Of a DNA stretch of 64,000 bases, positions 3,435-63,589 are shown piece after piece. Position numbers and translations under genes: made by a program. The notes under the pieces were generated by a model. The model did no database searches and had not been told where the DNA came from. It worked only from the letters and a program-made list of their open reading frames with translations. Numbering within the stretch: position 1 is the stretch's first letter; each line of letters starts with the position of its first letter. Source of the stretch: Chlorobiota bacterium (GTDB lineage: Bacteria; Bacteroidota; Ignavibacteria; OLB7); NCBI GenBank assembly GCA_028287785.1, contig JAQBOZ010000007.1, positions 271,393-335,392 of the forward strand. The letters are read 5' to 3'.

Positions 3435-4457
3435 CTATCGGGGAACTTCGATCCGATCGACAATTCCCTTCACCACGTCATCCGGCGTCACCCCTTCCAT
3501 CTCCTTCTCCGGCGTGATCAGAATCCTGTGGTTCAGCACCGGGCCGACAACGCGCCGGATATCCTCGGGGGTCACAAAATCGCGACCGGCCATCGCCGCG
3601 AACGCCTTTGCCCCCATCATGATGGAGATCGATGCCCGCGGCGAGGCCCCCAGATAGAGCGCGTTGTTGTTACGCGTGCCATCCACGATCTGAGCGATGT
3701 AGCGAAGAAGCGGCCCCTCGCAATGGACCTCCCGAACCTTCGCGCGGAAGGCGGCGATATGCTCCGCGGTCATCACCGGCCCCACCACGCTGATATCGGT
3801 GCTGCTCTTGCGCTGGTGAAAATCGGCAAGGATCTTCACCTCGTCGTCGATCGAGGGATAACCGACAGTGATCTTGAAGAGAAAGCGGTCCAGCTGCGCC
3901 TCCGGCAGACGGTAGGTTCCCTCCTGTTCGATCGGGTTCTGCGTGGCGATCACCAGAAACGGGCTGTCCATCAGGTAGGTCTCCCCATCCACCGTCACCT
4001 GCCGCTCCTCCATCACCTCGAAGAGGGCTGCCTGCGTCTTGGCCGGCGCCCGGTTGATCTCATCGATCAGGATCAGGTTGCTGAAGATCGGCCCGCGCCG
4101 GAACTCGAACTCGGATGACTTCATGTTGAAGATGGAGGTGCCGAGGATATCGGACGGCATCAGATCGGGGGTGAACTGCACGCGGGAGAAGCCGACCGAA
4201 AGCGTGCGGGCGATCAGCTTCGCGGCAAGCGTCTTGGCGATGCCGGGAACCCCTTCGATCAGCACGTGCCCGTCAGCCAGAATGGCCGCCAGCATCTGAT
4301 CCACCATCGCATGCTGCCCCACCATGATCTTCCCCACCTCCATGCGGATGCGATCCATCGCCTCCCGGATATCGCCGAGATCGAGACGGGATGTAAAGAA
4401 CTCCTGACTGTCCATAATGCCCTTCTGTTTCTGATAGGTTTCGGTAGGATTGAACAT
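3435..4457 (-). CDS. MoxR-family AAA+ ATPase
   Basis: Walker A GVPGIAKT, Walker B LILIDEINRA, sensor and arginine-finger region; ~320-340 aa as typical for MoxR. Confidence 0.9.
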   Translation of the reverse strand: MFNPTETYQKQKGIMDSQEFFTSRLDLGDIREAMDRIRMEVGKIMVGQHAMVDQMLAAILADGHVLIEGVPGIAKTLAAKLIARTLSVGFSRVQFTPDLMPSDILGTSIFNMKSSEFEFRRGPIFSNLILIDEINRAPAKTQAALFEVMEERQVTVDGETYLMDSPFLVIATQNPIEQEGTYRLPEAQLDRFLFKITVGYPSIDDEVKILADFHQRKSSTDISVVGPVMTAEHIAAFRAKVREVHCEGPLLRYIAQIVDGTRNNNALYLGASPRASISIMMGAKAFAAMAGRDFVTPEDIRRVVGPVLNHRILITPEKEMEGVTPDDVVKGIVDRIEVPR

Positions 4458-16140: not shown

Positions 16141-16452
16141 TCGGTAGTGACTCAGGTTGAATCCGGCCTTCCATCTGCTGAACAATCATCGGGCGGCGAT
16201 CCCTCCTTCTCTCTTCAAGCTCCAGAGGAGCGCGCCGATTGTAGCAACGATAGTTCCATCTCCCGCTCAAGCTCCATCGGAGCGTACCATCCCCGCATCC
16301 GTGCCGAACGGTACGCTCCGATGGAGCTTGAGATCATCGAAGACGTGGCATCGCTACAACCGGTACGCCCCGATGGGGCTGGAAGGAGAGATGCGGAATG
16401 CCCTCGATGAGCCCGAACAGCATGAGCCTTGTCCCAAACTGAGTCACTACCG
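16141..16452. mobile_element. MITE-like nested-palindrome element, family A, copy 1
   Basis: 19-bp terminal inverted repeats TCGGTAGTGACTCAGGTTG / CAAACTGAGTCACTACCGA, internal perfect 23-bp inverted repeat CTCAAGCTCCATCGGAGCGTACC with 21-nt loop, nested TTGTAGCAAC/GTTGCTACAA repeats. Homologous copies at 32508-32813 and 63277-63906. Confidence 0.6.
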
Positions 16453-19422: not shown

Positions 19423-19492
19423 AAGCCGGAGCGCGAAGATAACCGCTTGCCGGAGATTCCACCGCCGGATGCCGACGAAAAATGCTCATATG

Positions 19493-19668
19493 TCGGGGAA
19501 CGTTTGAAACGTCCCCTCATGCATGAAGCGTAAGGGGACGTTTCAAACGTCCCCCGACGATCGCTAGAACCGGACGCCCACGGTCATGAAGAGAATCGGT
19601 AAGGGGACGTTTCAAACGTCCCCCGACGATCGCTAGAACCGGACGCCCGCGGTCATGAAGAGAATCGG
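19493..19668. repeat. tandem array: degenerate unit + 2 x 69-bp units, each carrying the palindrome GGGGACGTTTCAAACGTCCCC
   Basis: Units 19531-19599 and 19600-19668 differ at one position. The last 36 nt of each unit equal the last 11 codons plus TAG stop of the upstream outer-membrane-protein gene. Confidence 0.8.
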
Positions 19669-21561
19669 CAGGCGGCTTACCAGCCGGCTCTCGTCAAACC
19701 TGTGTTCCCACCAGCCGGTGAAGCGGACAAGCGTTCTCTCCGAAAGATAGGCCTCGAACCGCGCCGTCGGGCCAACGGATGTACGATCGGAATACGGGAG
19801 CAGGGCGATGGAGCGGGGATCGGTGCGATAACTCTTCACCCGCGAAAGCCGCCCGCCGATGCCGAAGGTGGTCCCCTCGATGGCGCTCGTGGTCAGCTCC
19901 GCCTCCAGCCCCTCCGTCCGCGTCCGCTCCAGCGGGCTCTCCGCGAACTGATCCCAGCTGAAACTTCCCCGCTCCGCGATTCTGAGATCGCCGCTGGCAA
20001 GGAGACGGAGCGTACGGGAGATCGAGAGGCCGAGCGAATCGCGCAGATGAAGCTCGCGGAACGATCGCCCCCTGATATTCTGCGTCCGCCCCTCGAAATC
20101 GTACACCGTGTAGTTGGCAACCACCTCGGTCTCCAGATAATTCTGAAATCCCTCCCCTATCCGGTAACCGACCGATGGGGCGATCCTGAAGACCCGGTTC
20201 CAGTTGTTGTCGTTGCTGTTCTGGCCGAACAGATAGACCAGGTGTGTCAGAAAGATCTGGCCGTAGACGGAGAGATCGAGCATCGGGCTGAAGGAGCGGG
20301 AGTAGCGCAGCTCCCCCTGGATCGTCTGCTCGTCCTTGTCGAAATAGTTTGTCGGGCTGGGCGTGTCGTATCGATAGATCCCCACGGAGCCGCCGAGCGA
20401 GATGGTATCATAACGCGCCGGCCGGTACTCCGCCGAGCCCGCGAGCCGTATCTGCTGCGATACGAAATCGTTCTGCGCGCTGGTCGATCGCTTCTGCTCC
20501 AGCTCCACATCGCTCACCGAGCCTATCCTCTCGACCGTGTTATCCTGCTCGCTGGTGTAATACTCCATCCTTGCGTTGACGCGAAGATGCGACGGATTCC
20601 AGTGCCCTCCGATAACCGCGCCGATCGCCAGCTCGTTCCGTCCGAAGCCGTACGGATCGGGATCGCGCGGGAGGCCGGGCAGCCCATCGTTCTGCTCGCG
20701 CTGATCGATCTTCAGCCGGGAGAGCGAAACCGTGGCATCGATCCCAAGCTCATCGTTCACCGGATAGCTGATCAGCGAATTGATCCTCAGCCTCCCCTCC
20801 CCCCGCTTCTGGAGCGCCTCGTAGGTCAGGCCGCCGTAACGGAGGATATCATCCTCGCTCCGCTTCACAAGGAGATCGGTGTTGATAAGCTCGTAGTGAC
20901 CCTGAAGGTCGATCACGGAGCCCTCGTCGAACTGGCGCGCGATATGAAGGTCGAGATCGCCATTGCTGTTGTGCCGCGGGGCCACGTTGTAGAACCGGCC
21001 GACCCCCTGGGCCGCGATATGATATCCCTCCAGATCGAGCGACCCGGACCCCTCGCCGTACAGGCCGACTCCCCCATCCTCCACATTCAACTGCCGGTTG
21101 TACGCCCCTCCGGCGGCGATCCCCAGCCTGTTCCCGTCCTCATCCACGATCCTCCCGCCAAGCCCCAGAAATCCGGCGGCCGTGTTGTTCAACCCGGCGA
21201 TCCGGGCATCGCGGCTGGCATCGTTGGTCAGCGTCCCTTCCGAGAGCATGAAGACCCGGAATGGGGAGGATGTCCTGTACTCCATGTCGATCAGCGCGTC
21301 CACCTGATCCCTGGTCGATGGGATGCCGAGCAGCGTTGTCGATGAGGTGAGATAGCTTCGAAAGATCCCGGCGGTCGCCCCCTGAAGCAGCCGATAATCA
21401 GTGGTGAGTGATGTCGTGTGGGTTGCGTCGAACCGCTCGGCGCGCGCAATCGCCTGCTGCCGGATCGTGGAATCCGGGAACTCCGGGACCTGCCCCCGTG
21501 CCGCGGTCGCGATCAGAAGGCAGAAGAGGAGCGCGCCGCACCGCCGGTTCGATAATCCCAC
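19633..21561 (-). CDS. outer-membrane beta-barrel protein, hypothetical
   Basis: Ends ...AGVRF with aromatic C-terminus, amphipathic beta-strand periodicity, signal-like LLFCLLIATAARGQ. A GTG start near 21561 is inferred because aspartokinase ends at 21572. Confidence 0.55.
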   Translation of the reverse strand: MGLSNRRCGALLFCLLIATAARGQVPEFPDSTIRQQAIARAERFDATHTTSLTTDYRLLQGATAGIFRSYLTSSTTLLGIPSTRDQVDALIDMEYRTSSPFRVFMLSEGTLTNDASRDARIAGLNNTAAGFLGLGGRIVDEDGNRLGIAAGGAYNRQLNVEDGGVGLYGEGSGSLDLEGYHIAAQGVGRFYNVAPRHNSNGDLDLHIARQFDEGSVIDLQGHYELINTDLLVKRSEDDILRYGGLTYEALQKRGEGRLRINSLISYPVNDELGIDATVSLSRLKIDQREQNDGLPGLPRDPDPYGFGRNELAIGAVIGGHWNPSHLRVNARMEYYTSEQDNTVERIGSVSDVELEQKRSTSAQNDFVSQQIRLAGSAEYRPARYDTISLGGSVGIYRYDTPSPTNYFDKDEQTIQGELRYSRSFSPMLDLSVYGQIFLTHLVYLFGQNSNDNNWNRVFRIAPSVGYRIGEGFQNYLETEVVANYTVYDFEGRTQNIRGRSFRELHLRDSLGLSISRTLRLLASGDLRIAERGSFSWDQFAESPLERTRTEGLEAELTTSAIEGTTFGIGGRLSRVKSYRTDPRSIALLPYSDRTSVGPTARFEAYLSERTLVRFTGWWEHRFDESRLVSRLPILFMTAGVRF

Positions 21562-21571
21562 CGGCGGGCCC

Positions 21572-22918
21572 TCAGGTATGAGTGTCGGAATGGAGAACCC
21601 CGGTGGCGGCCGCGAAACGCTCGTGAAGTGGGCCAAGCGTCCGCCGGGCCGCTTCACGGTCGAGCGCCACGCTGATGGCCCGCCCTTCGATTCCCCCCTG
21701 CATCGCCAGCAGATCCCGGCCGGCAAACGCGGCAAAGAACCGCTCCATCTCCTCACCGCTCAGACGCTCCTCCCCAACCAGCGACAGGACCGATACCGGC
21801 GCGACATGAGCCTCCACCGGCTCCGCTACCAGATGCACCGGAAGGCTCGCGTGCGGATACGGCCCGGCCAGCAGGATCTGCATTCGGTGACGGAACCGTT
21901 GCTGCCAGATGATCGGCGTCTCGGCGGCGATGGCGCGGAGGAACGGATCGAGCGCGGCGGTCGTGGTGGCCGTCTCCAGCGAGATCAGCTCGGCATCCGG
22001 GAGCATCGCGATGGAATATCCATGCTCTCCCTCGGTTCCGATCGTCGTGGATTCCCCACCCAGGCTGGTGATCACAAGCGGAATCGAGGAGCGTTCCACC
22101 GGCATCACCGTCCGCGGATGGAGGATCTTCGCCCCCAGCTCGGCCAGCGTGTTCGCCATCGCGTAGCTCATCGTTCTGAGCGTGCGCGCCTCGGGGACCA
22201 GCTTGGGATCGGCGGTGAGGATGCCGGGAACGCTGGTGTAGATCCTGACCTCGCGGGCGTCGAGGATCGAGGCGAGCATCGTGGCGGAATAGTTGGAGGA
22301 TTCGCGCCCCATCGTGGTTGCCTGCCCCGATGCGCTTCTGGCGATATACCCCTCGGTCACCACCACCGGATGCGTAGCCAGCAGCGGGGGGATCTGCTCC
22401 AGCACCCGCTCCCGCGTCAACTCCAGATCGGGACGGGCGTAGCGATGCGCGCCATCGGTGATGATCAGATCCAGCGCGCAGATGCCGGCGGCATCGGCTC
22501 CGGAGGGGGAATCGTTCAGCGCGGCCAGCAGCAGCGCCGAGGAAAATCGTTCGCCGAAATGGACGATCAGGTCAAGCGTGCGCGGCGAAAGCTCGCGGAC
22601 GATGCCAAGCCCCTGCACAACATCGGCAAGGCGCGCCCTGTGCGGAGCTATCGTCTCAAGCCATGCGTTGTACGCCCCGGCGGAAAGCGCGCGACGGGCA
22701 ATCCCGGCGTGAAGCTCGATGATGGCGTCCAGATCGCGCGCGGCGGCCGCGGAATCGGACAGCGCGTGATCGGCAAGGTGTTCAAGAAGATTGGTGACGT
22801 TGGCGAACGCACTCACCACGACGAGAAGAGGACCCGGAAGGCGACGGATTTCATCACGCGCGCGAAGGAGCCCCTCGCTGCTGTTGAGGAGTGCGCCGCC
22901 GAATTTTGCGACAATCAT
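21572..22918 (-). CDS. aspartate kinase
   Basis: MIVAKFGGALL... (KFGG kinase motif), amino-acid-kinase domain plus C-terminal ACT-like region; 448 aa. Confidence 0.85.
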   Translation of the reverse strand: MIVAKFGGALLNSSEGLLRARDEIRRLPGPLLVVVSAFANVTNLLEHLADHALSDSAAAARDLDAIIELHAGIARRALSAGAYNAWLETIAPHRARLADVVQGLGIVRELSPRTLDLIVHFGERFSSALLLAALNDSPSGADAAGICALDLIITDGAHRYARPDLELTRERVLEQIPPLLATHPVVVTEGYIARSASGQATTMGRESSNYSATMLASILDAREVRIYTSVPGILTADPKLVPEARTLRTMSYAMANTLAELGAKILHPRTVMPVERSSIPLVITSLGGESTTIGTEGEHGYSIAMLPDAELISLETATTTAALDPFLRAIAAETPIIWQQRFRHRMQILLAGPYPHASLPVHLVAEPVEAHVAPVSVLSLVGEERLSGEEMERFFAAFAGRDLLAMQGGIEGRAISVALDREAARRTLGPLHERFAAATGVLHSDTHT

Positions 22919-32507: not shown

Positions 32508-32813
32508 AGTTACTTCCTGACTCAGCCTGAATCAGGCTCTGGTCTGCGCCGCGATCATCCGGCAATATCTCTTCATCGTTCTTCAAGCTCCGTGGGAGCG
32601 CGCCGGTTGTAGCAACCGATGCTCCCGTTCCCCCTCAAGCTCCATCGGAGCGGACCATCCCCGCATCCATGCCGAATGGTCCGCTCCGATGGAGCCTGAC
32701 ATCATGAAAGACGTGACGTTGCTACAACCAGCCCGCCCCGATGGGGCTGTCAAGACGGAGGCCTTACATAATGCCGTGTTTCGTGCCTCTCATCTCAAAT
32801 TGAGCCACTACCC
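32508..32813. mobile_element. MITE-like element family A, copy 2 (left terminal repeat degenerate)
   Basis: Shares the internal CTCAAGCTCCATCGGAGCGGACC hairpin and loop with copy 1; right end CAAATTGAGCCACTACC. Confidence 0.45.
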
Positions 32814-34038: not shown

Positions 34039-34427
34039 CGGTGTTCCGGATTTACTGGTTGCGTATCGGTCGGGAGATCATGTCTCGTCGCCATCATCCT
34101 CGCCATATAACTGCCCGCCCCCCTCGTCGCCGTAGGTGGGGCTCTCCACATCACCATCGGTCGCCCGGCCGATCCCGGCATGGTCGCGCCCCATGATCTC
34201 CTCGCGTTCCGGAACGATATCGCTCCCCTTGATCATCCCCTGCTGTGCCTCCACGGGAGGCTCGTGCCGGCGCGATTCCCGGCCGGCCGCATCGGCGTGG
34301 GTATCGCCGCTCTCCGGGCCTGTTGCCCTGTCATGTTCCTGCTCTTCCACGATGCACCTCGCTGATTGGTTCGTACCACCATTTGTCGATAGAATCGAGC
34401 AAGTACCATGCCCCGCGCCGTGGGCGA

Positions 34428-35966
34428 TTACTTCTTCTCCAGCTCGACCGGCTCCAGATCCACGTTTGCCGGGCCGTTGATCACCCGCCCATGCGGATCG
34501 AACCGCGATCCGTGGCACGGGCAGTCCCACGATTTCTCAAGATCGTTCCAGTCCACCACACAGCCGAGATGCGTGCATACGGCGGAGCATCCATGCGCCT
34601 TCCCCTGTTCATCGCGATAGACCGCGACCCTGGTGGCGCCGTCCCAGACCACGGCGCCGGAGCCCCCCTTGATCTCCGCGTAGTCATCGACCTGGCTCCC
34701 CTTCAGCCAGTCGGCATACTGCATCATGGTGTTTGCCCCCTCGCGAAGAAAATCGCCAGCCGCGCCCAGGGTTATCCGTCCCGGATCGTAAAGGGTCGCC
34801 CACGGATGTTCCCGCCCCATGATCAGATCGGTGATGATCATCCCGCCGATGGTTCCATGCGTCATCCCGTTGCCGGAATCGCCGGTGATGATGTAGATAT
34901 TATCGTCATCGACCGGGTTGCGACCGATGAACGCCAGCCCATCCACCGGCTCCATCACCTGACCGGACCAGCGGAACTCCACCTCGCCCGCGGTCGGAAA
35001 GCGCTGGCGCGACCATTTCTCCAGGCGGTCAAACCGCGCGGCGGGATCATCCTCCTGCCCGGTCTTATGGTCCTCACCGCCAACGATCAGGATATCGTAC
35101 GGGCCGTTGTCCGAGGTCTGAATGCGGATATAGTGATAGGGATCTCCGGTATCCCAGAACAGATCGCGCGGCACCGTTCCCGGCGCCACCTGGAGGCCGA
35201 TCACATAGGTGCGATAGGCCGCCTGCTTGGTGTGAATCACCAGCAGATCGTTGAACGGGGAGTTGGTGGCAACCACCACCGATCCCGCGTCGATCATGAA
35301 ATGATCCACCGTCTCGACGCCGGTCCGCTTCCCCCCCGATACCCGATCGGCGCGGGTGCCGGTGTAGATGCGCCCGCCGGCCCGCTCGATGGCGGCGGCA
35401 AGCCCGCCCAGATATTTCAGCGGATGGAACTGCGCCTGATGCGGGAAGCAGAGGGCGGGGCCGGTGTTGAACGATGCGATCGGCGCGCGATCCACGAGCC
35501 TGATATCCTCCAGGCCCACGGCGTGCGCGGCCTCCAGCTCGCGCCGGAGCTCATCCTCCGGCCTTCCCTCCGATGCGAAGAGATAGCCGTTCAACCGCTC
35601 GAACCGGCAATCGATCTTCTCGTCGCGGACAATCCGCTCCATCTCCGCGATGGCCGCGGTATGGCTCTCGGCGGCGATCCGCGCCCCATCCTCCCCATGC
35701 AGGCGGATCAGCTCGTAATAGCGATCATCGAGCGCGTTGGTGAGATGCGCCGTGGTCCTGCCGGTCTCCCCGCCGCCGATCGGCCCGTCATCGATCACCA
35801 CCACCGACCTGCCGGCGCGCGCCAGCAGATACGCCGTCGTCAGCCCGGCAATGCCGGCGCCCACCACGCAGACATCGGCGCGGGTGTTTTCCGCCAGCGG
35901 CCGCCGCGCGCTGATCTCCGCCGATGCCATCCAGACCGAAATGCTTTCTCCGGAATCGTTGTTCAT
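34428..35966 (-). CDS. FAD-dependent oxidoreductase fused to a C-terminal Rieske [2Fe-2S] domain
   Basis: Dinucleotide-binding motif [11 protein letters not shown]; Rieske boxes CTHLGC and CPCHGS. Start placed at MNNDSG (GGAG RBS) because the longer ORF reads through a perfect 53-nt palindrome. Confidence 0.8.
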
Positions 35967-35990
35967 GGGTTCTCCGAATTGTTTATCGTC

Positions 35991-36043
35991 GCGTGGCGGA
36001 TGGTCGGGGCGGGTTTGAAACCCGCCCCGACCATCCGCCACGC
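35991..36043. repeat. perfect 53-nt palindrome (26-bp arms, single-nt centre) of the GGGCGGGTTT-AAACCCGCCC family
   Basis: GCGTGGCGGATGGTCGGGGCGGGTTT-G-AAACCCGCCCCGACCATCCGCCACGC, verified base by base. It lies 24 nt upstream of the Rieske-fusion start codon. Confidence 0.9.
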
Positions 36044-36398
36044 AATCGGACGGCAAACCTCCTGCCAGTCATCTCATCGGGCGGGCGCTCCGTTTGCATG
36101 CTCCCGAATCGCTGAACCGGCGGCCGGCGACGAACGTTCCCACGGCATCACCTCTTGTTAACCGATTGTCACCCCGCCTTGTTCTTCTTCGACGCTGGAA
36201 CTTTTTACTATCTTTGTCTTCCCGCTGGATCACCGTAGCAGATGATCTCGCCCGGAGCTTCCAACGCAGTGGGGATTCATCCCTCCATCGGGGCACGCTG
36301 CCGGAAGCTTCCACAACGTAGTGAAGGCTGTCCGCGATACCGAGCTTCCCGACACTCACTCGACTCAACAAATCTTTCAGGGATAAATTTTTTCGCAG

Positions 36399-37916
36399 AT
36401 GAACATCCACGAGCATCAGGCTAAAGAACTGCTCGGCAAGTATGGCGTGCCGGTGCAGACAGGGCGTGTGGCATTTACGCCGGAGCAGGCGGTCGAGGCC
36501 GCCCACAACATGATCCAGGAGGGCGCCACGCTCCTGATCGTAAAATCGCAGATCCATGCCGGCGGGCGCGGAAAGGGGGTGATCCACGACGTTCAGACCA
36601 ACCAGCCGGTTCAGTTCGAGGGGAAGGATCTTCGCGGGGTGAAGGTGGTTCCGGTGGACGGCAACACGCTGGACACGGTCTACCAGATCGCGCGGAACAC
36701 CCTTGGCAACAAGCTGGTCACCATCCAGACCGGCGCCGAGGGAAAGATTGTCAACCGCCTTCTGATCGCCAACGGCGTGGATATCGACAAGGAGTTCTAC
36801 TGCTCGATCCTGCTTGACCGCGGCACCAGCATGAACATCATCATGGCCTCCACCGAAGGTGGCGTGGAGATCGAGAAGGTGGCCGAGGAGACCCCGGAGA
36901 AGATCGTCCGCGAGTATGTCGATCCGGGGGCGGGGCTTCAGGGCTTCCAGGCGCGCCGCCTCGCGTTCGGCCTGGGGCTGACCGGCAAGGCCGGGAAGAG
37001 CTTCATCACCTTTATCACGGCGCTCTACAAGGCCTACCTGGCAATCGATGCCGCCATGGTGGAAGTGAACCCGATGGCCCTGACCATCGATGGCGATATC
37101 CTCGCCGTCGACTCCAAGGTGTCGCTGGACGACAACGCACTCTATCGCCACGCCGATATCGCCGCGATGCGGGATGAGAGCGAGGAGGACCCGCTGGAGG
37201 TCGAGGCCGGGAAACACGATCTCAACTACATCAAACTGGACGGCAACGTCGGCTGCATGGTCAACGGCGCCGGCCTTGCGATGGCAACGATGGACATCAT
37301 CAAGCTGGCCGGTGGCGAACCCGCCAACTTCCTGGATGTGGGGGGTGGGGCAAGCGTGGAGCGTGTTGCCGCCGCATTCCGCGTGATGATGAGCGATCCG
37401 AACGTGAAAGTAGTTCTAATCAACATCTTCGGCGGGATCGTTCGCTGCGATCGCGTCGCAAACGGAATCATTCAGGCTATGGAAACCGTAAAGGTAAACA
37501 TCCCGGTGATCGTCCGACTTGACGGCACCAACGCCGAGGAGGCGCGTGATATCCTCCTCAAATCCTCCCTCGATTTCTCCGTGGCAGCCACGCTGAAGGA
37601 CGCCGCCGAGAAGGTCACGGAAGCAATCAACGCCATGGGCGCCGGATCGGTCAAGGAAGAATCGGCAGCCGCGGTCCTCAACGCCGCGATGGCATCCGCC
37701 TCGCTCGCCATTCCCGGCGGCAAGGATGAGGAGGAAGAGGACGACGATGAGGAAGATGCCGATCTGGACGAAAAGGGAGAAGGCGAGGACGATGAGGAGG
37801 AGGAGTTCGAGTTCGAGGAGGTGGAAGATCCCGAGGCGCTCGACCTTCGCGAGTTCGATGAAGAGGAGATCAACGACGATATCGACGACGTTCTTACCGA
37901 CGACGACGATTTCTGA
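36399..37916 (+). CDS. sucC: succinate--CoA ligase [ADP-forming] beta subunit with ~110-aa polyacidic C-terminal extension
   Basis: [19 protein letters not shown]..., ATP-grasp and CoA-ligase domains. After about residue 395 there is an extra tail ...[66 protein letters not shown]. Confidence 0.9.
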
Positions 37917-39677: not shown

Positions 39678-39973
39678 ACTCCATATGTAAGGATAACGTT
39701 GATATTGTTGAGCATCGCTGCAATCGGCGCGGGGGAGTTGGAAACCCCGCCACGGGAGTGATTAAGATAACGGCATCGCGGAAAAACTACCACGCACTTC
39801 CGTGCATTCCGTAGATTTGCCCCCTTGACCGGCCCCTTCTCGCGCCCGGCGGCTCTCCCTGACCGGAGCGTCCCGAAGCCGGAGATGGCGCCATCCCGTC
39901 CGATTCGAAACAACGGGTGTTCCCTATCAAACGTTAGGCCCGTTCCGGGCATTTCCTATATCATTTCTCGTCC

Positions 39974-41528
39974 CATGCAAACGCGCACTCAAGATAACGA
40001 TCAGGTAGCCCGGCGCTACGAAGAGCTTGAACATCTCGAATCGGCGGGGGTGCTTGCCTATCCGTATGCGTTCGATAAAACGCATAGCGCCGCCGCCGCG
40101 AAATCGCAGTATCAGGATGACACGCCGGAGCTCACCGTCGCGGTTGCCGGACGGATCGTGGGGATCAGGCGGATGGGAAAGGCGAGCTTCGTTCATATCC
40201 AGGATGATTCCGGCAGACTTCAGATCTATCTGAAGAAGGATGATCTCCCGGATTACGACCAGTTCCGGCTGTACGATATCGGCGATATCATCGGCGCGGC
40301 CGGCTACATGTTCCGCACCCGCACCAACGAGGTGACGCTGCACGCCAGGAGTTTCACGCTCCTCACCAAGTGCCTCTCCCCGCTGCCGATTGCCAAGGAG
40401 GAGATCGATGAGGAGGGGAACAGGATCGTTCACGATCAGTTCGCCGACAAGGAGATGCGCTACCGCCAGCGATACGTGGATCTCGCGGTCAACCCGGAGG
40501 TGCGCGATGTCTTCCGGAAGCGGGCCAAGCTGATCACCACCGTCCGCCGCTATCTCGATCAGCGGAACTATCTGGAGGTGGAAACCCCCGTCCTGCATAC
40601 GATGTACGGCGGCGCCGCGGCCCGCCCCTTCGCGTCGCATCTGAACGCGCTGGATATCCCCCTCTTCCTCCGGATCTCGCTGGAGCTGAACCTGAAGCGT
40701 CTGATGGTCGGCGGCTTCGAGGGGGTCTACGAGCTTGGCAAGAATTTCCGGAACGAGGGGATCGACAAGACCCATAATCCCGAGTTCACGATGCTGGAGC
40801 TGTACGTGGCGTACAGGGATTACATGTGGATGATGGAGATGACCGAGGAGATGCTGACGGAGGTTGTGATGGCTGTCAACGGCTCGCTCCATGTCACCGC
40901 GGCCAACGGCGCCACGCTGGACTTCACCCCGCCGTACCGCCGCGCCACGATGCACGGGCTGATCGCGGAGTATACGGGAAAGGATATCGAGGGGATGGAT
41001 CTTGCGTCGCTCCGGGCGCTGGCGCACGAGCAGGGGGTTCATACCGATGCAACGATGGGAATCGGGAAGGTGATCGATGAGATATTCTCGGAGAAGGTGC
41101 AGCCGCATCTTGTGCAGCCGACATTTGTGATGGACTATCCCGAGGAGATGGTGCCGCTTGCCAAGCCGCATCGCTCCAAGGCCGGGCTGGTGGAGAGCTG
41201 GGAGCTGATCATCAACACGCAGGAACTGGCCCCCTGCTTCAGCGAGTTGAACGATCCCCGTGTTCAGCGCCGTCGCTTCACCGAGCAGGCGAAGCTCCGC
41301 GACGCCGGCGACGACGAGGCGATGCTGATCGACGAGGATTTCCTGCGCGCTCTGGAGGTCGGCATGCCGCCGGCCGCCGGCATGGGGCTGGGAATCGACC
41401 GCCTGACGATGATCCTCACCGGCGAGGAATCGATCCGCGATGTGATCTTCTTCCCGATGATGCGCCCTGATGAACGGCGCGACGCTGGTGGGAGTGATGC
41501 GGCGGCCGCGGATGAAACCGCCGGATGA
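39974..41528 (+). CDS. lysS: lysine--tRNA ligase (class II)
   Basis: OB-fold anticodon-binding N-terminus, class II motifs 1-3 (FRNEG..., GGAAARPF, GMGLGIDR). Confidence 0.9.
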
Positions 41529-41535
41529 TGTATAA

Positions 41536-41572
41536 CGCAGTCGGGGCGGGTTTTAAACCCGCCCCGACTGCG
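41536..41572. repeat. perfect 37-nt palindrome CGCAGTCGGGGCGGGTTT-T-AAACCCGCCCCGACTGCG
   Basis: Sits between convergent lysS and the 41553-42038 gene; the TAA stop of the reverse-strand gene is the palindrome centre. Confidence 0.85.
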
Positions 41573-42038
41573 ACCGATGTTCCGCCATCATCTCCATCAC
41601 CTTCCGGTAGTATTCCGCCACGCTCTCCGCTGCTCCGTCGGTGATGCGACGGAAAACGCGCGCGGTTGGGAAGAGAACCGTGCCATCCGGAAGCTCCACG
41701 GCCAGAAGGGTTGGCGCCTCCTCATGGCCGGTGATCCATGTGCCGCCAAGCTCCAGCCGGAACGTTTCGCCGAGATAGATCCCCCAGAGATTTGCCCACT
41801 GCGCCACATCCACATCGCTTGTCCCAAGGCCCAGCCGTTTCTTGAAGGATTTCTGAGTGTACTGCCCGTGCAGTTCCTCCAGCATCTCATCGAGAACCGG
41901 CAGGGTCGCCGGGGTATGGTCGAACAGCGCCGAGCGCCAGCTTACGGCGGCATCGCGGGCGGCGGCATCGTACTGCGCCACCAGCACCTCCAGCGATTCG
42001 GGTTTTTCCGGCTTCTTGAACGCTCGTTTTTTCAGCAT
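41553..42038 (-). CDS. hypothetical cytoplasmic protein
   Basis: 161-aa ORF with good codon periodicity; the last 6 codons and the stop are contributed by the palindrome. Confidence 0.45.
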   Translation of the reverse strand: MLKKRAFKKPEKPESLEVLVAQYDAAARDAAVSWRSALFDHTPATLPVLDEMLEELHGQYTQKSFKKRLGLGTSDVDVAQWANLWGIYLGETFRLELGGTWITGHEEAPTLLAVELPDGTVLFPTARVFRRITDGAAESVAEYYRKVMEMMAEHRSQSGRV

Positions 42039-43087: not shown

Positions 43088-43246
43088 AACGATTCCTGAA
43101 TATCGATGGAAGAAATGATCAATCCGTTTCGTTATGAAGAGATCAAAATCCGTACCTCAAACCTCCATCCCCTCAGATGTGCGCGGGGCGATGCCCCGCG
43201 CACCAGGAATTGCGCCCCTCCGGGGCTTGGGACGATGCTTCCGACA

Positions 43247-43408
43247 ACGCTGCGGATGACCTTCTTCAGCGTATTCCAGAGACGCAGACCCTTCAAGGAC
43301 GATCAGGTGCAAGGCGGCCGAGCCTGAGCGAGTGAGGCGTCCCCCCGGACGCCGCAATGAGCCAACGGTGAAGGCCAACGCCGCAGATGACATCCTTCAA
43401 CAGTCTGC
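43247..43408 (-). mobile_element. MITE-like element family B, copy 1 (far end degenerate, 14-nt insertion)
   Basis: Reverse complement aligns with 51652-51786 (shared GCAGACTGTTGAAGGAyGwCATCTGCGGCGTTGGCCTTCACCGTT...). It abuts the TAG stop of mgtE. Confidence 0.5.
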
Positions 43409-44787
43409 TATAGGAGGGTCCCCCGAAGCACAAGCACCGCGACGGTGAAATAGATGATCAGCCCGGTCACATCCACCAGCGTGGCAACAAACGGCGCTGA
43501 TGATGTGGCCGGATCGGCGCCGAACCGCTTCAGGATGAATGGGAGCATCGATCCGGCAAGCGTTCCCCAGAGGACGATGCCGATAAGGGAAAGGCCCACC
43601 GTAAGCCCCACCAGCGCCCAGTGCGGCCCGTAGATCTGCGAGAACATGCTCCAGACCGCGATCCGCAGAAAGCCGATTGTCCCGAGAATCAGCCCCAGTA
43701 TCAGCCCGGAGAAAAGCTCGCGCCGCATCACCAGCCACCAGTCGCGCAACTTCACCTCCCCAAGCGCCAGGGCCCTGATGATCAGCGTGGCCGCCTGCGA
43801 GCCGGAGTTTCCGCCGCTCGATATGATCAGCGGCACAAAGAGCGCAAGCACCACCGCGCGGGCGATCTGCCCCTCGAAGAACCCCATCGCCGTGGCGGTG
43901 AGCATCTCCCCGAGAAAGAGGATGACAAGCCACGAGGCCCGCTTGCGAACCATCCGAAGGAGCGGAGTGCTCACGTACGGCTCATCCAGCGCCTCCAGGC
44001 CGCCGAACTTCTGGATGTCCTCCGTCGCCTCCTCCTCCGCCACGTCCAGCATGTCATCCACGGTAACGATGCCAAGCAGCCGGCCGCGCGCGTCGATCAC
44101 CGGAAGCACCGTCCGGTCATATTTCCGGAAGACATCGATCGCCGACTCCTGATCCTCGGTGGCACGAAGCGCCAGGAACTGGTTGTCCATCAGATCGGCC
44201 ACGCCGGTATGGAACTCCGCCAGAAGGAACTTTCTGATATGCACATCATCCACCAGGCGGTTGTTCGCGTCCACCACGTAGATCACATCAAGCGTCTCGC
44301 TGTTACGGCCATGCGTCCTGATATGATCCAGCACCCGCCGCACCGTCCAATCCTCCAGCACCGCGATATAATCCGGCGTCATCAGACGGCCCACGCTGTT
44401 CTCGGGAAAATCCAGAAGCGTCCGCGCCACCTCCCGCTCCTCGGTGGAGAGGAGGTTCATCATCTCGCCGGCGGTTTCTTCCGATACCTCCTCCAGCAGC
44501 GCTGTCCGGTCATCCGGCGACATCACGTTGAGAAGCGCCGATGCCTTCTCCCTGGTCATCCCTTCAAGCAGCCATGCCTGATCGGACGGATCGAGATACT
44601 CAAACGTTTCGGCGGCCAGATCCCCCTGAATCGCGCTGAACGCCTGCGGCCGCTCATCCTCGGGAAGGCTGGTGAGCAGCCCCGCGATATCGGCCGGAAG
44701 CCAGTCGCTGAAGACCTCGCTCAGTGTCTCAAGGTCGTCCGCTGCGATAAGATCTCTGATCTCGGGCTGGAGAAGTTTTTCGATCAT
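43408..44787 (-). CDS. mgtE: magnesium transporter MgtE
   Basis: N-terminal MgtE_N, tandem CBS, C-terminal 5-TM MgtE domain (GGNSGSQAATLIIRALA). Confidence 0.9.
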   Translation of the reverse strand: MIEKLLQPEIRDLIAADDLETLSEVFSDWLPADIAGLLTSLPEDERPQAFSAIQGDLAAETFEYLDPSDQAWLLEGMTREKASALLNVMSPDDRTALLEEVSEETAGEMMNLLSTEEREVARTLLDFPENSVGRLMTPDYIAVLEDWTVRRVLDHIRTHGRNSETLDVIYVVDANNRLVDDVHIRKFLLAEFHTGVADLMDNQFLALRATEDQESAIDVFRKYDRTVLPVIDARGRLLGIVTVDDMLDVAEEEATEDIQKFGGLEALDEPYVSTPLLRMVRKRASWLVILFLGEMLTATAMGFFEGQIARAVVLALFVPLIISSGGNSGSQAATLIIRALALGEVKLRDWWLVMRRELFSGLILGLILGTIGFLRIAVWSMFSQIYGPHWALVGLTVGLSLIGIVLWGTLAGSMLPFILKRFGADPATSSAPFVATLVDVTGLIIYFTVAVLVLRGTLL

Positions 44788-45244
44788 CTGCCGTGCTGTT
44801 CGAAGGGATTGTTCGTGCTTCCTCCACGCGCCGGATTGGAGCCGCGGAAGGAGAAATTATCGAGGATGATCCTCTCACCATCCATTATCGCCGCGTAACG
44901 ATTCGATTTTCCGGCGATGGAAGGCGCACCGGCGAGCCCCGCGGTTCAGTATCTTCGATCTCAAATGATAAACCACGTCGGCCGGATGAAACCCGGACGC
45001 GGCAGGCTCGTCTAGCGGGCTTTCCTCGGAATCCATCAGGAACCGCAAACCCGCCCCGTGGAAAAGCATTCATCAACGGGGCGGCAGCCCACATTTCATC
45101 CGAAGATCAGAGACAGCGGCACGGACGCCAGCGCGCGATGATCGCGGCCGGCGCCGGAATGTACCATATGCCCGCCGGGGCGTTCCAGTCACGAGCGTTC
45201 CTTCTCTCGATCTTCGCGAACGACATTACGATCCGGGCCAAAAT

Positions 45245-61509: not shown

Positions 61510-61530
61510 GGGGACGTTTTAAACGTCCCC
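61510..61530. repeat. palindrome GGGGACGTTTTAAACGTCCCC between convergent genes
   Basis: Same TAA-GGGGACGTTTyAAACGTCCCC-CGAC context as the copies at 19534 and 19603. Confidence 0.8.
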
Positions 61531-63276: not shown

Positions 63277-63589
63277 ATGGGTAGTGACTCAGGTTGGGAT
63301 ACGGTTCATGCTGTTCGGACTCATCGAGGGCATTCGGCATCTCTCCTTCCAGCCCCATCGGGGCGTACCGGTTGTAGCAATGCCATGTCTTCGATGATCT
63401 GAAGCTCCATCGGAGCGTACCATTTGGCACGGATGCGGGGATGGTACGCTCCGATGGAGCTTGAGCGGGAGATGGGAGCATTGTTGCTACAACCGGCGCG
63501 CTCCTACGGAGCTTGAAGAGTGAAGGAGGGATCGCCGCTCGATGATTGTTCAGCAGATGGAAGACTGGATTCAAACTGAGTCACTACCG
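63277..63589. mobile_element. MITE-like element family A, copy 3 (inverted relative to copy 1)
   Basis: GGTAGTGACTCAGGTTGGG...CAAACTGAGTCACTACCGG; internal AGCTCCATCGGAGCGTACC-loop-GGTACGCTCCGATGGAGCT; preceded by GATCATG. Confidence 0.6.

Follow-up and report, generated by a model that had tools for sequence, protein, structure and literature searches.

The subject of this report is a palindromic element in the 64-kb window that we analysed, i.e., the whole stretch of 64,000 nucleotides (nt) taken from the Chlorobiota contig JAQBOZ010000007.1. The locus is framed by two divergent genes, one encoding a FAD-dependent oxidoreductase fused to a Rieske domain (DAO plus Rieske architecture according to Pfam; hereafter FAD/Rieske) and the other being sucC, and between them lies a perfect palindrome of 53 nt that we call palindrome 1, or copy 1. 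A second and shorter palindrome with the same core, palindrome 2 or copy 2, is found farther along the window; the coordinates of all features are collected in Table 1. An inverted-repeat search of the window confirmed the zero-mismatch palindrome described in the initial annotation, which consists of two 26-nt arms (35991-36016 and 36018-36043) that are 100% complementary on either side of a 1-nt centre. As had also been anticipated, the predicted hairpin is very stable, with folding energies of -38.1 kcal/mol as single-stranded DNA (ssDNA; z = -11.7) and -57.9 kcal/mol as RNA (z = -12.8), and it is the strongest among all intergenic regions of the window; the 29-nt core in its middle folds at -17.3 kcal/mol as DNA. 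From its edge at 35991 to the FAD/Rieske start codon, the sequence bears out the proposed distance of 24 nt.

The nearest relatives of the window are metagenome-assembled genomes (MAGs) of Candidatus Kapaibacterium sp. (genus Kapaibacterium, Bacteroidota). The close outgroup is assembly GCA_039917235.1, whose contigs L092 and L093 share 86-94% nucleotide identity with the window over about 15 kb, and a distant syntenic relative is represented by L090, L094, L095 and L097, with a FAD/Rieske protein 71% identical to that of the window. A metagenome scan with the FAD/Rieske protein returned no closer relatives (best match 71% identical), the contig carrying the sucC relative P0195 is not syntenic, a plasmid database gave distant sucC matches only, and the intergenic DNA of L090 is too diverged to be aligned beyond the sucC promoter blocks.

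The longest open reading frame (ORF) of the FAD/Rieske gene (34428-36056, 542 codons) runs through palindrome 1, and its translation there is the one given in the initial annotation, which had argued that the palindrome is non-coding and the long frame over-extended. Indeed, the alignments begin only at residue M31 of the long ORF in 120 of the 120 homologues listed, the identical database protein has 512 amino acids, and the orthologues in L093 (512 amino acids) and L090 begin with MNNDSG, as does the window protein when started at 35966. The start is therefore placed at 35966. Judged from these alignments, palindrome 1 lies outside the coding sequence and the 542-codon ORF is over-extended, which fixes the start codon of this gene for annotation.

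The inner 29 nt of palindrome 1, GTCGGGGCGGGTTT-N-AAACCCGCCCCGAC, are repeated exactly at 41540-41568, the centre base alone being different, and the 25-nt core pattern has 2 matches in the window against 0.00 expected from 100 shuffles. A wider scan for this 25-nt centre, with one genome per species, located it at 87 loci in many phyla, and 87 of 87 lie in MAGs. The groups concerned include Dehalococcoidia, Anaerolineae, Desulfobaccales, Binatia, Sumerlaeota, Ozemobacteraceae and Nitrospirota, as well as Cyanobacteria, alpha- and gamma-proteobacteria and a few Oscillospiraceae. Multiple copies are present in at least 13 assemblies, with up to 9 retrieved copies per genome, and the flanks are unique at the 87 external loci. 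According to rough ORF-based gene calls, the external copies lie between 33 tandem, 24 convergent and 7 divergent gene pairs. An all-against-all BLASTP of the 1,815 flanking ORFs detected no recurrent gene family beside them, and a conserved neighbour gene (e.g., a transposase) at the external copies was accordingly rejected.

A covariance model (CM) of the family, built from 97 core copies, scores both window copies at 51-53 bits (E about 1e-10); together with the identical core, this upholds the earlier assignment of 41536-41572 to the same family. Arm positions 13 and 14 are paired in 69/87 and 65/87 copies, compared to 41 and 53 expected from base frequencies, compensatory pairs included, and from position 15 outward pairing falls to the chance level at the 87 loci. 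Because pairing stops after arm position 14, the family unit is 29 nt long. The window's 26-bp and 18-bp arms are outliers of the family, and the 12 bp by which the arms of palindrome 1 exceed the core are perfectly palindromic and private to this copy. The family stem, GGGGCGGG..., comprises 13-14 bp of G/C around a TTT-N-AAA centre and has no conserved tail (positions 15 and beyond at chance). Among the 174 external arms, the commonest end tags are CGTC (36), TGTC (30) and GGTC (22), and G and T predominate at the two positions just outside the search pattern. The tag of the window copies is GTCG, and GTAG-ended copies of the same core, GTAGGGGCGGGTTTAAAACCCGCCCCTAC, share contigs with GTCG copies.

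Palindromes of this kind are dense in the window. Five odd-centred perfect palindromes with arms of at least 10 bp occur in its 64 kb, whereas contigs chosen without regard to the palindrome yielded 1 in about 505 kb, and the architecture GGGG-N4-TTT-N-AAA-N4-CCCC is matched 6 times with at most one mismatch, where 0 are expected. Carriage by phages received no support, as viral_contigs held 0 matches for either core, and Rfam returned generic hairpin matches only, far below the gathering threshold. A reading of GGGTTTGAAACCC as a tRNA-like minihelix or T-loop was rejected, given that there is no conserved CCA, that U-A pairs close the loop and that the tRNA-Sec score in Rfam is far below threshold.

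The close relative, with its nucleotide identity of about 90%, has neither of the two perfect copies, which agrees with the REP-like nature and recent origin put forward in the initial annotation (REP, repetitive extragenic palindrome). The gene order in L093 is FAD/Rieske (minus strand), DUF427 (minus strand), sucC (plus strand), and the distant relative shows the same order; DUF427 is therefore ancestral and was lost in the window, where tblastn found it nowhere. It is because of this loss that palindrome 1 now lies in a divergent region. Collinear homology with L093 stops at window position 35980 and restarts at 36037 (95% identity, 38 nt), and the 579 nt that L093 has in between (3550-4128) hold a perfect hairpin, TGGGGCGATTC-AC-GAATCGCCCCA, the DUF427 gene and about 70 nt of DUF427 leader. 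The outermost bases of the right arm, GCCACGC, fall inside the resumed homology. Since these bases are ancestral flank and their complement GCGTGGC in the left arm is without counterpart in L093, at least the outer part of the left arm must have arisen by inverted copying of the other side, 7 complementary bases being expected by chance with a probability of about 6e-5. We infer that these outer 7 nt of the left arm are a templated copy of the ancestral flank, and the comparison is direct evidence of growth of palindrome 1 in place.

At L093 4090-4104, about 25-40 nt from the homology boundary, there is a non-folding look-alike, GTCCGGACGGGTTTG, in which 13/15 arm positions are matched. This weak look-alike may be the decayed remnant of an older copy, later refreshed in the window lineage, or a fold-back seed, or a coincidence; palindrome 1 may accordingly be an old element that was refreshed or a new insertion. 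Construction of the palindrome from the 3' coding end of DUF427 was considered as well and rejected: the short matches GGGCGGGTTT, GGCGGATGG and ATCGTCG are no better than expected by chance (E = 0.15-2.4) and not collinear.

Table 1. Palindromes, genes and related segments of the 64-kb window (coordinates in the window).
Feature	Coordinates	Strand	Remarks
Palindrome 1, perfect, 53 nt, non-coding	35991-36043		Centre G at 36017; outer arm GCGTGGCGGATG; divergent region between the FAD/Rieske gene and sucC
Family core within palindrome 1, 29 nt	36003-36031		GTCGGGGCGGGTTT-G-AAACCCGCCCCGAC; unit common to copy 2 and 87 loci elsewhere
Outer 7 nt of right arm, GCCACGC	36037-36043		Ancestral flank; collinear homology with L093 begins here
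Outer 7 nt of left arm, GCGTGGC	35991-35997		Exact inverted copy of GCCACGC; no counterpart at that position in L093
Lineage-specific segment, 56 nt	35981-36036		Takes the place of 579 nt at L093 3550-4128
FAD-dependent oxidoreductase/Rieske fusion gene, 512 amino acids	34428-35966	-	True start ATG 35966; GGAG Shine-Dalgarno sequence at 35975-35972
sucC, with acidic C-terminal tail	36399-37916	+	Divergent neighbour; upstream region 97-100% conserved with the relative up to palindrome 1
Palindrome 2, perfect, 37 nt, 18-bp arms	41536-41572		Core 41540-41568 plus private 4-bp extension CGCA/TGCG
TAA stop of gene 41553-42038	41553-41555	-	Formed by the centre of palindrome 2 (bases 41555-41553)
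Family B, three GGGGACGTTT-N-AAACGTCCCC palindromes	19495-19623		Cores 19495-19517, 19534-19554 and 19603-19623; different inner stem
Fourth family-B palindrome	61510-61530		Between convergent genes
Alleged split version	45046-45089		12-nt half-site AAACCCGCCCCG and 8-nt complement CGGGGCGG 18 nt away; not counted as a member

Palindrome 2 sits between two convergent genes, a class II D/K/N-type aminoacyl-tRNA synthetase gene (39825-41528) and gene 41553-42038, which encodes a protein of 161 amino acids. The relative again differs in gene content: in L092 a Fic gene of 462 amino acids stands between the 161-amino-acid gene and the synthetase gene, the two are 24 nt apart in the window with palindrome 2 occupying the gap, and the Fic gene was not found anywhere in the window. 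The claim that palindrome 2 supplies the TAA stop of gene 41553-42038 holds, and the last 6 codons of this gene lie in its right arm. The window protein and its orthologue P0121 both have 161 amino acids and are 95% identical over the aligned 94% of the length; the last 14 residues or so diverge, and the C-terminal tail of this protein family is variable. For annotation, both the stop codon and the C-terminal tail of the gene are thus created by a repeat. The terminator scan found no terminator-type T-run after palindrome 2. A role as 3'-end hairpin of its convergent genes is plausible, because this genome usually has a strong hairpin without T-run at such places and canonical terminators are not enriched.

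DUF427 and Fic are the two genes absent on the window side in the comparison of about 15 kb, and they coincide with the two palindrome copies. More generally, 4/5 of the window-side alignment breaks contain REP-like hairpins, the fifth being a small ORF absent from L093. If this association with breakpoints holds genome-wide, such hairpins would be useful to mark genome rearrangements in Kapaibacteria, and might even bring them about.

Taken together, these observations make it rather probable that palindrome 1 is a REP-type repetitive extragenic palindrome whose arms were extended in situ, that it lies at the junction left by the loss of DUF427, and that it is a by-product of repeat dynamics. 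As such, it is a further example of a known bacterial repeat class and not a new regulatory device. The core, GT[C/A]G-GGGCGGGTTT-N-AAACCCGCCC-C[G/T]AC, belongs to a dispersed hairpin family with REP-typical end tags, the tag being readable either as GTCG (the GTMG variant of GTAG) or as [C/T]GTC. Copies would have spread as ssDNA hairpins through a REP-associated tyrosine (HUH/Y1) transposase (RAYT), a mobilisation step that we presume. In the Kapaibacterium lineage of the window, 56 nt replace a stretch of 579 nt that contains the DUF427 gene in relatives, palindrome 1 lies at the junction, and its arms were lengthened from 14 to 26 bp as flanking DNA of one side was copied to the opposite side of the hairpin, presumably by self-templated (fold-back or template-switch) synthesis. 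If transcribed, the hairpin of about -58 kcal/mol would end 24 nt before the start codon and leave the ribosome-binding site free, and palindrome 1 is most likely a by-product of repeat dynamics rather than a dedicated regulator.

In quasipalindrome formation by template switch or fold-back (Ripley model; E. coli and yeast), one arm of a hairpin templates the other, symmetry spreads into the flank and a deletion often accompanies the event. Such events usually involve either a few nt or inverted duplications of very large size, whereas here 12 bp would have been added to a pre-existing element with 14-bp arms.

Three traits of the REP class were found here, i.e., a stem-loop unit of 20-40 nt, a terminal tetranucleotide of the GTAG/CGTC type and a mainly tandem or convergent location. 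REPs with GTAG or CGTC end tags, GTMG and TGTC variants included, were described by Di Nocera et al. (2013; PMC3733652), who reported that they lie downstream of genes, that families can be common to distant organisms, that their ends can supply stop codons and that CGTC REPs are present in Chlorobi and Bacteroidetes among other phyla. Like the GTAG REPs associated with RAYT (TnpA-REP; Nunvar, 2010; Ton-Hoang, 2012; Messing, 2012, PMC3479197; PMC3733652), the core is a GC-rich extragenic palindrome of 20-40 nt with unique flanks, mostly downstream of genes, with a GTAG-class tetranucleotide (GTCG being the published GTMG variant) and ends that give stop codons; long stems of 12-13 bp are known in the GTAG-24 family. 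Unlike them, it has a paired tag at both ends, the whole unit being a perfect palindrome with a 1-nt centre, it is identical in many phyla and no flanked RAYT gene was seen. With the CGTC REPs it has in common the [C/T]GTC tag with its CGTC-to-TGTC variation, the presence in Bacteroidota/Chlorobiota and the lack of a known transposase (PMC3733652). However, CGTC-1 to CGTC-4 have a stem of 8-9 bp with A/T pairs at the first and second position, a loop of 4-5 nt and a CCA tail (PMC3733652), whereas the core has a 13-14 bp G/C stem, a TTT-N-AAA centre and no tail, and thus falls outside these four families.

REPINs (Bertels and Rainey, 2011; PMC3116915) also form a long hairpin from two inverted halves, a replicating non-autonomous unit that is missing from close relatives at given loci. 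Their halves are imperfect REP hairpins with tens of nt between them, and REPINs are mostly lineage-restricted (PMC3116915); the core has 14-nt halves without internal hairpin and a 1-nt spacer, and is therefore not a REPIN. Similarly, copy 2 resembles an intrinsic terminator in being a GC-rich hairpin at convergent gene ends, but neither copy has a T-run and copy 1 is upstream of genes on both strands, which sets them apart from this class.

Several observations weigh against a REP origin. No Y1/RAYT transposase was detected by Pfam among the 40 window proteins scanned over the 64 kb, and only two copies are visible in the window. A tblastn search with E. coli RayT against all fetched loci returned one decayed fragment only, ..LPDSRHCIWTLP* at 1740-2009 of L046, a deltaproteobacterial MAG (E = 6e-4), and this sole RAYT-like sequence has no Pfam hit. 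It lies 69 nt from a GTAG-GGGCGG palindrome, GTAGGGGCGGTTCGCGAACCGCCCCTAC, in a genome that has the core as well (a copy of the core family, family C, directly after dnaB 2 kb away), and would constitute a weak link between the core and RAYT. Copy 1 is in a divergent region, which is unusual for REPs, and the published features of CGTC REPs (A/T-first stems, short loops and CCA tails) are all absent here. The L093 look-alike stands at about the same place as palindrome 1 and scores 15 bits with the family CM (E = 0.34). Finally, some of the cross-phylum matches, e.g., those in Oscillospiraceae, could be convergent strong hairpins.

Four other explanations deserve to be weighed. A purely in-situ origin, which we hold to be unlikely, would require no mobile element: a break or stall near DUF427, followed by fold-back priming at a native inverted repeat, GGTTT..AAACC, would have produced both the deletion and a de novo palindrome. 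The position of palindrome 1 exactly at the replacement of 579 nt by 56 nt agrees with it, as do the outer 7 bp of the right arm, which are ancestral flank, the resemblance of the inner right arm to the native CAAACCCGTCCGGAC of the relative at 13/15 positions and the failure of the relative's counterpart to fold (-2.8 kcal/mol, z = +0.8). Moreover, family pairing beyond position 14 is at chance, so that the extra 12 bp would be of local origin. However, this origin accounts for the extension and not for the core, since the inner 29 nt have identical counterparts in copy 2, at a distance of 5.5 kb, and in dozens of copies from unrelated phyla.

It is also improbable that palindrome 1 is a selected functional hairpin, i.e., a stabiliser or attenuator in the FAD/Rieske 5' leader or an operator in the divergent promoter, with copy 2 as a bidirectional terminator. 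Its predicted RNA hairpin (-57.9 kcal/mol) ends 13 nt before the Shine-Dalgarno sequence, and a near match to the Bacteroidetes-type -7 box, GAGGTTTG, lies 11 nt upstream of the palindrome and is kept in L093, so one might speculate that the hairpin sits at the 5' end of the FAD/Rieske transcript. GC hairpins in almost all convergent and tandem regions, together with T-run terminators that are not enriched, would suit copy 2 as a 3'-end hairpin. On the contrary, the relatives (about 90% nucleotide identity; 71% FAD/Rieske protein identity) have no such hairpin upstream of the gene, and the position beside the FAD/Rieske gene is a by-product of the loss of DUF427. No T-run follows palindrome 1, no Rfam family matches it, and an operator of 53 perfect bases would be atypical. 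Sigma-70 and terminator scans were blank at both copies, and no sigma-70-type promoter was detected in the intergenic region between sucC and FAD/Rieske. The regulatory role in the 5' untranslated region suggested by the initial annotation is thus unsupported, given that the element is not conserved at the locus and owes its position to the deletion.

The third explanation gives the repeat a more active part: the 29-nt palindrome would be a self-contained, cross-phylum mobile hairpin, readable identically on both strands, that homes to or overwrites pre-existing intergenic hairpins, grows by self-templated flank copying and promotes the precise loss of the adjacent gene. It is based on the location of both copies exactly at gene-content differences with the relative of about 90% identity, and on the REP-like hairpins at 4/5 of the breaks. 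We give it little credence, but if true the element, far from being a passive repeat, would actively drive the loss of genes and the turnover of hairpins in uncultured bacteria. The weakest alternative, a false inverted join at a palindromic k-mer, is very improbable: the source is a MAG and an independent short-read contig of the same strain (Logan L088, SRR13312994) breaks 3 nt inside palindrome 1, but each of the two flanks is unique and aligns collinearly with the relative, assemblies made with different technologies contain a second copy and 87 external ones, and a contig break at a strong hairpin is expected of a real palindrome. Position 1 of L088 corresponds to window position 35993 and the contig carries the identical FAD/Rieske gene; palindrome 1 thus appears to explain short-read assembly breaks in the area of 35993.

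Interpreted as a REP, palindrome 1 would be a natural example of such an element at the junction of a gene loss, where part of one arm comes from the ancestral flank. The family would be a fully symmetric REP family with [C/T]GTC and GTAG tags, common to MAGs of many uncultured phyla; its literal core sequence is unmentioned in the searchable literature, which returned irrelevant primer matches only. The attribution to REPs is in itself ordinary, and it is the evidence on the junction and the extension, together with the cross-phylum identity, that modestly deserves attention.

The window contains further palindromes, which the initial annotation had tied to the same group. Family B (Table 1) has the arm length, the TTT-N-AAA centre and, in one arm, the GTCGGGG outer end in common with the core, and its arm CGTCGGGGGACGTTT is identical to the core arm GTCGGGGCGGGTTT at 11/14 positions; the other arm begins with GTAAG, which is GTAG in the relative L092. 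The family CM did not return the window family-B copies among its matches, and it scored the L092 copy at about 12 bits only. The proposal of one superfamily with GGGGACGTTT is therefore weakly supported and finds no link in the strict family CM; family B and the core are related by architecture and tags, and common descent is not demonstrated. The split version described at 45046-45089 does exist, but its halves point outward on either side of an 18-nt loop, it folds weakly (z = -1.7 to -3.0) and the family CM does not detect it. The region is 90% identical in L092, where the complementarity is broken, and by this comparison the site is ordinary intergenic DNA inherited by descent, not a family member.

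Two side observations concern the other repeats of the window. At 19529-19666 there is a tandem duplication of about 69 nt, the unit of which comprises a family-B palindrome and the last 35 nt or so, stop codon included, of the minus-strand gene 19633-21756; a third copy at 19492-19522 has the opposite orientation to the duplicated ones. A third repeat family of the window, family A, is present at 16266-16332, 32635-32699 and 63399-63465 with inverted arms of 23-25 nt, CTCAAGCTCCATCGGAGCGTACC / GGTACGCTCCGATGGAGCTTGAG, spaced by 17-21 nt, and resembles a classical REPIN doublet. The family-A copy at 32635 is within a stretch of 334 nt for which L093 has 55 nt with a half-decayed family-B element (around 700-722).

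On the sucC side of the locus, the window SucC has an extra poly-acidic C-terminal tail of about 95 amino acids. Most of the top 45 or so SucC matches, from Kapabacteria/'Chlorobi' MAGs, are orthologues of about 500 amino acids, compared to about 415 for an ordinary SucC, and the exact window sequence is not on record. A plus-strand block at 36198-36220, TTTTTACTATCTTTGTCTTCC, has an identical counterpart in the close relative and a near-identical one in the distant relative, whose TACTATCTTTGTCTTCC part is an exact match. This part holds a Bacteroidetes-type -7 promoter box, TAtcTTTG, which stands about 180 nt upstream of sucC. Beyond the FAD/Rieske gene, a minus-strand ORF of about 90 amino acids (34078-34350) separates this gene from the HAD-hydrolase/deaminase gene; it is present in the distant relative (102 amino acids) and missing from L093.

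In the window, almost all intergenic regions between convergent or tandem genes have strong GC-rich hairpins of their own without T-run (e.g., 15357, 16598, 17474 and 37945), and terminators made of a hairpin plus a T-run are not enriched (13 found compared to 10.2 expected in 20 kb). Downstream of mgtE (43163-43414), a hairpin of the form GTGCGCGGGGC-GAT-GCCCCGCGCAC is found in the window together with an additional 190 nt or so, and at the same 3' site L092 (3317-3381) shows a longer inverted repeat that encloses a family-B palindrome, GTAGGGGGACGTTTCAAACGTCCCCTTAC. The window and the relative thus carry different hairpins at the 3' end of mgtE, and they also do so between the vWA-OmpA gene and the HAD-hydrolase/deaminase gene, which points to a rapid turnover of hairpins at fixed intergenic positions.

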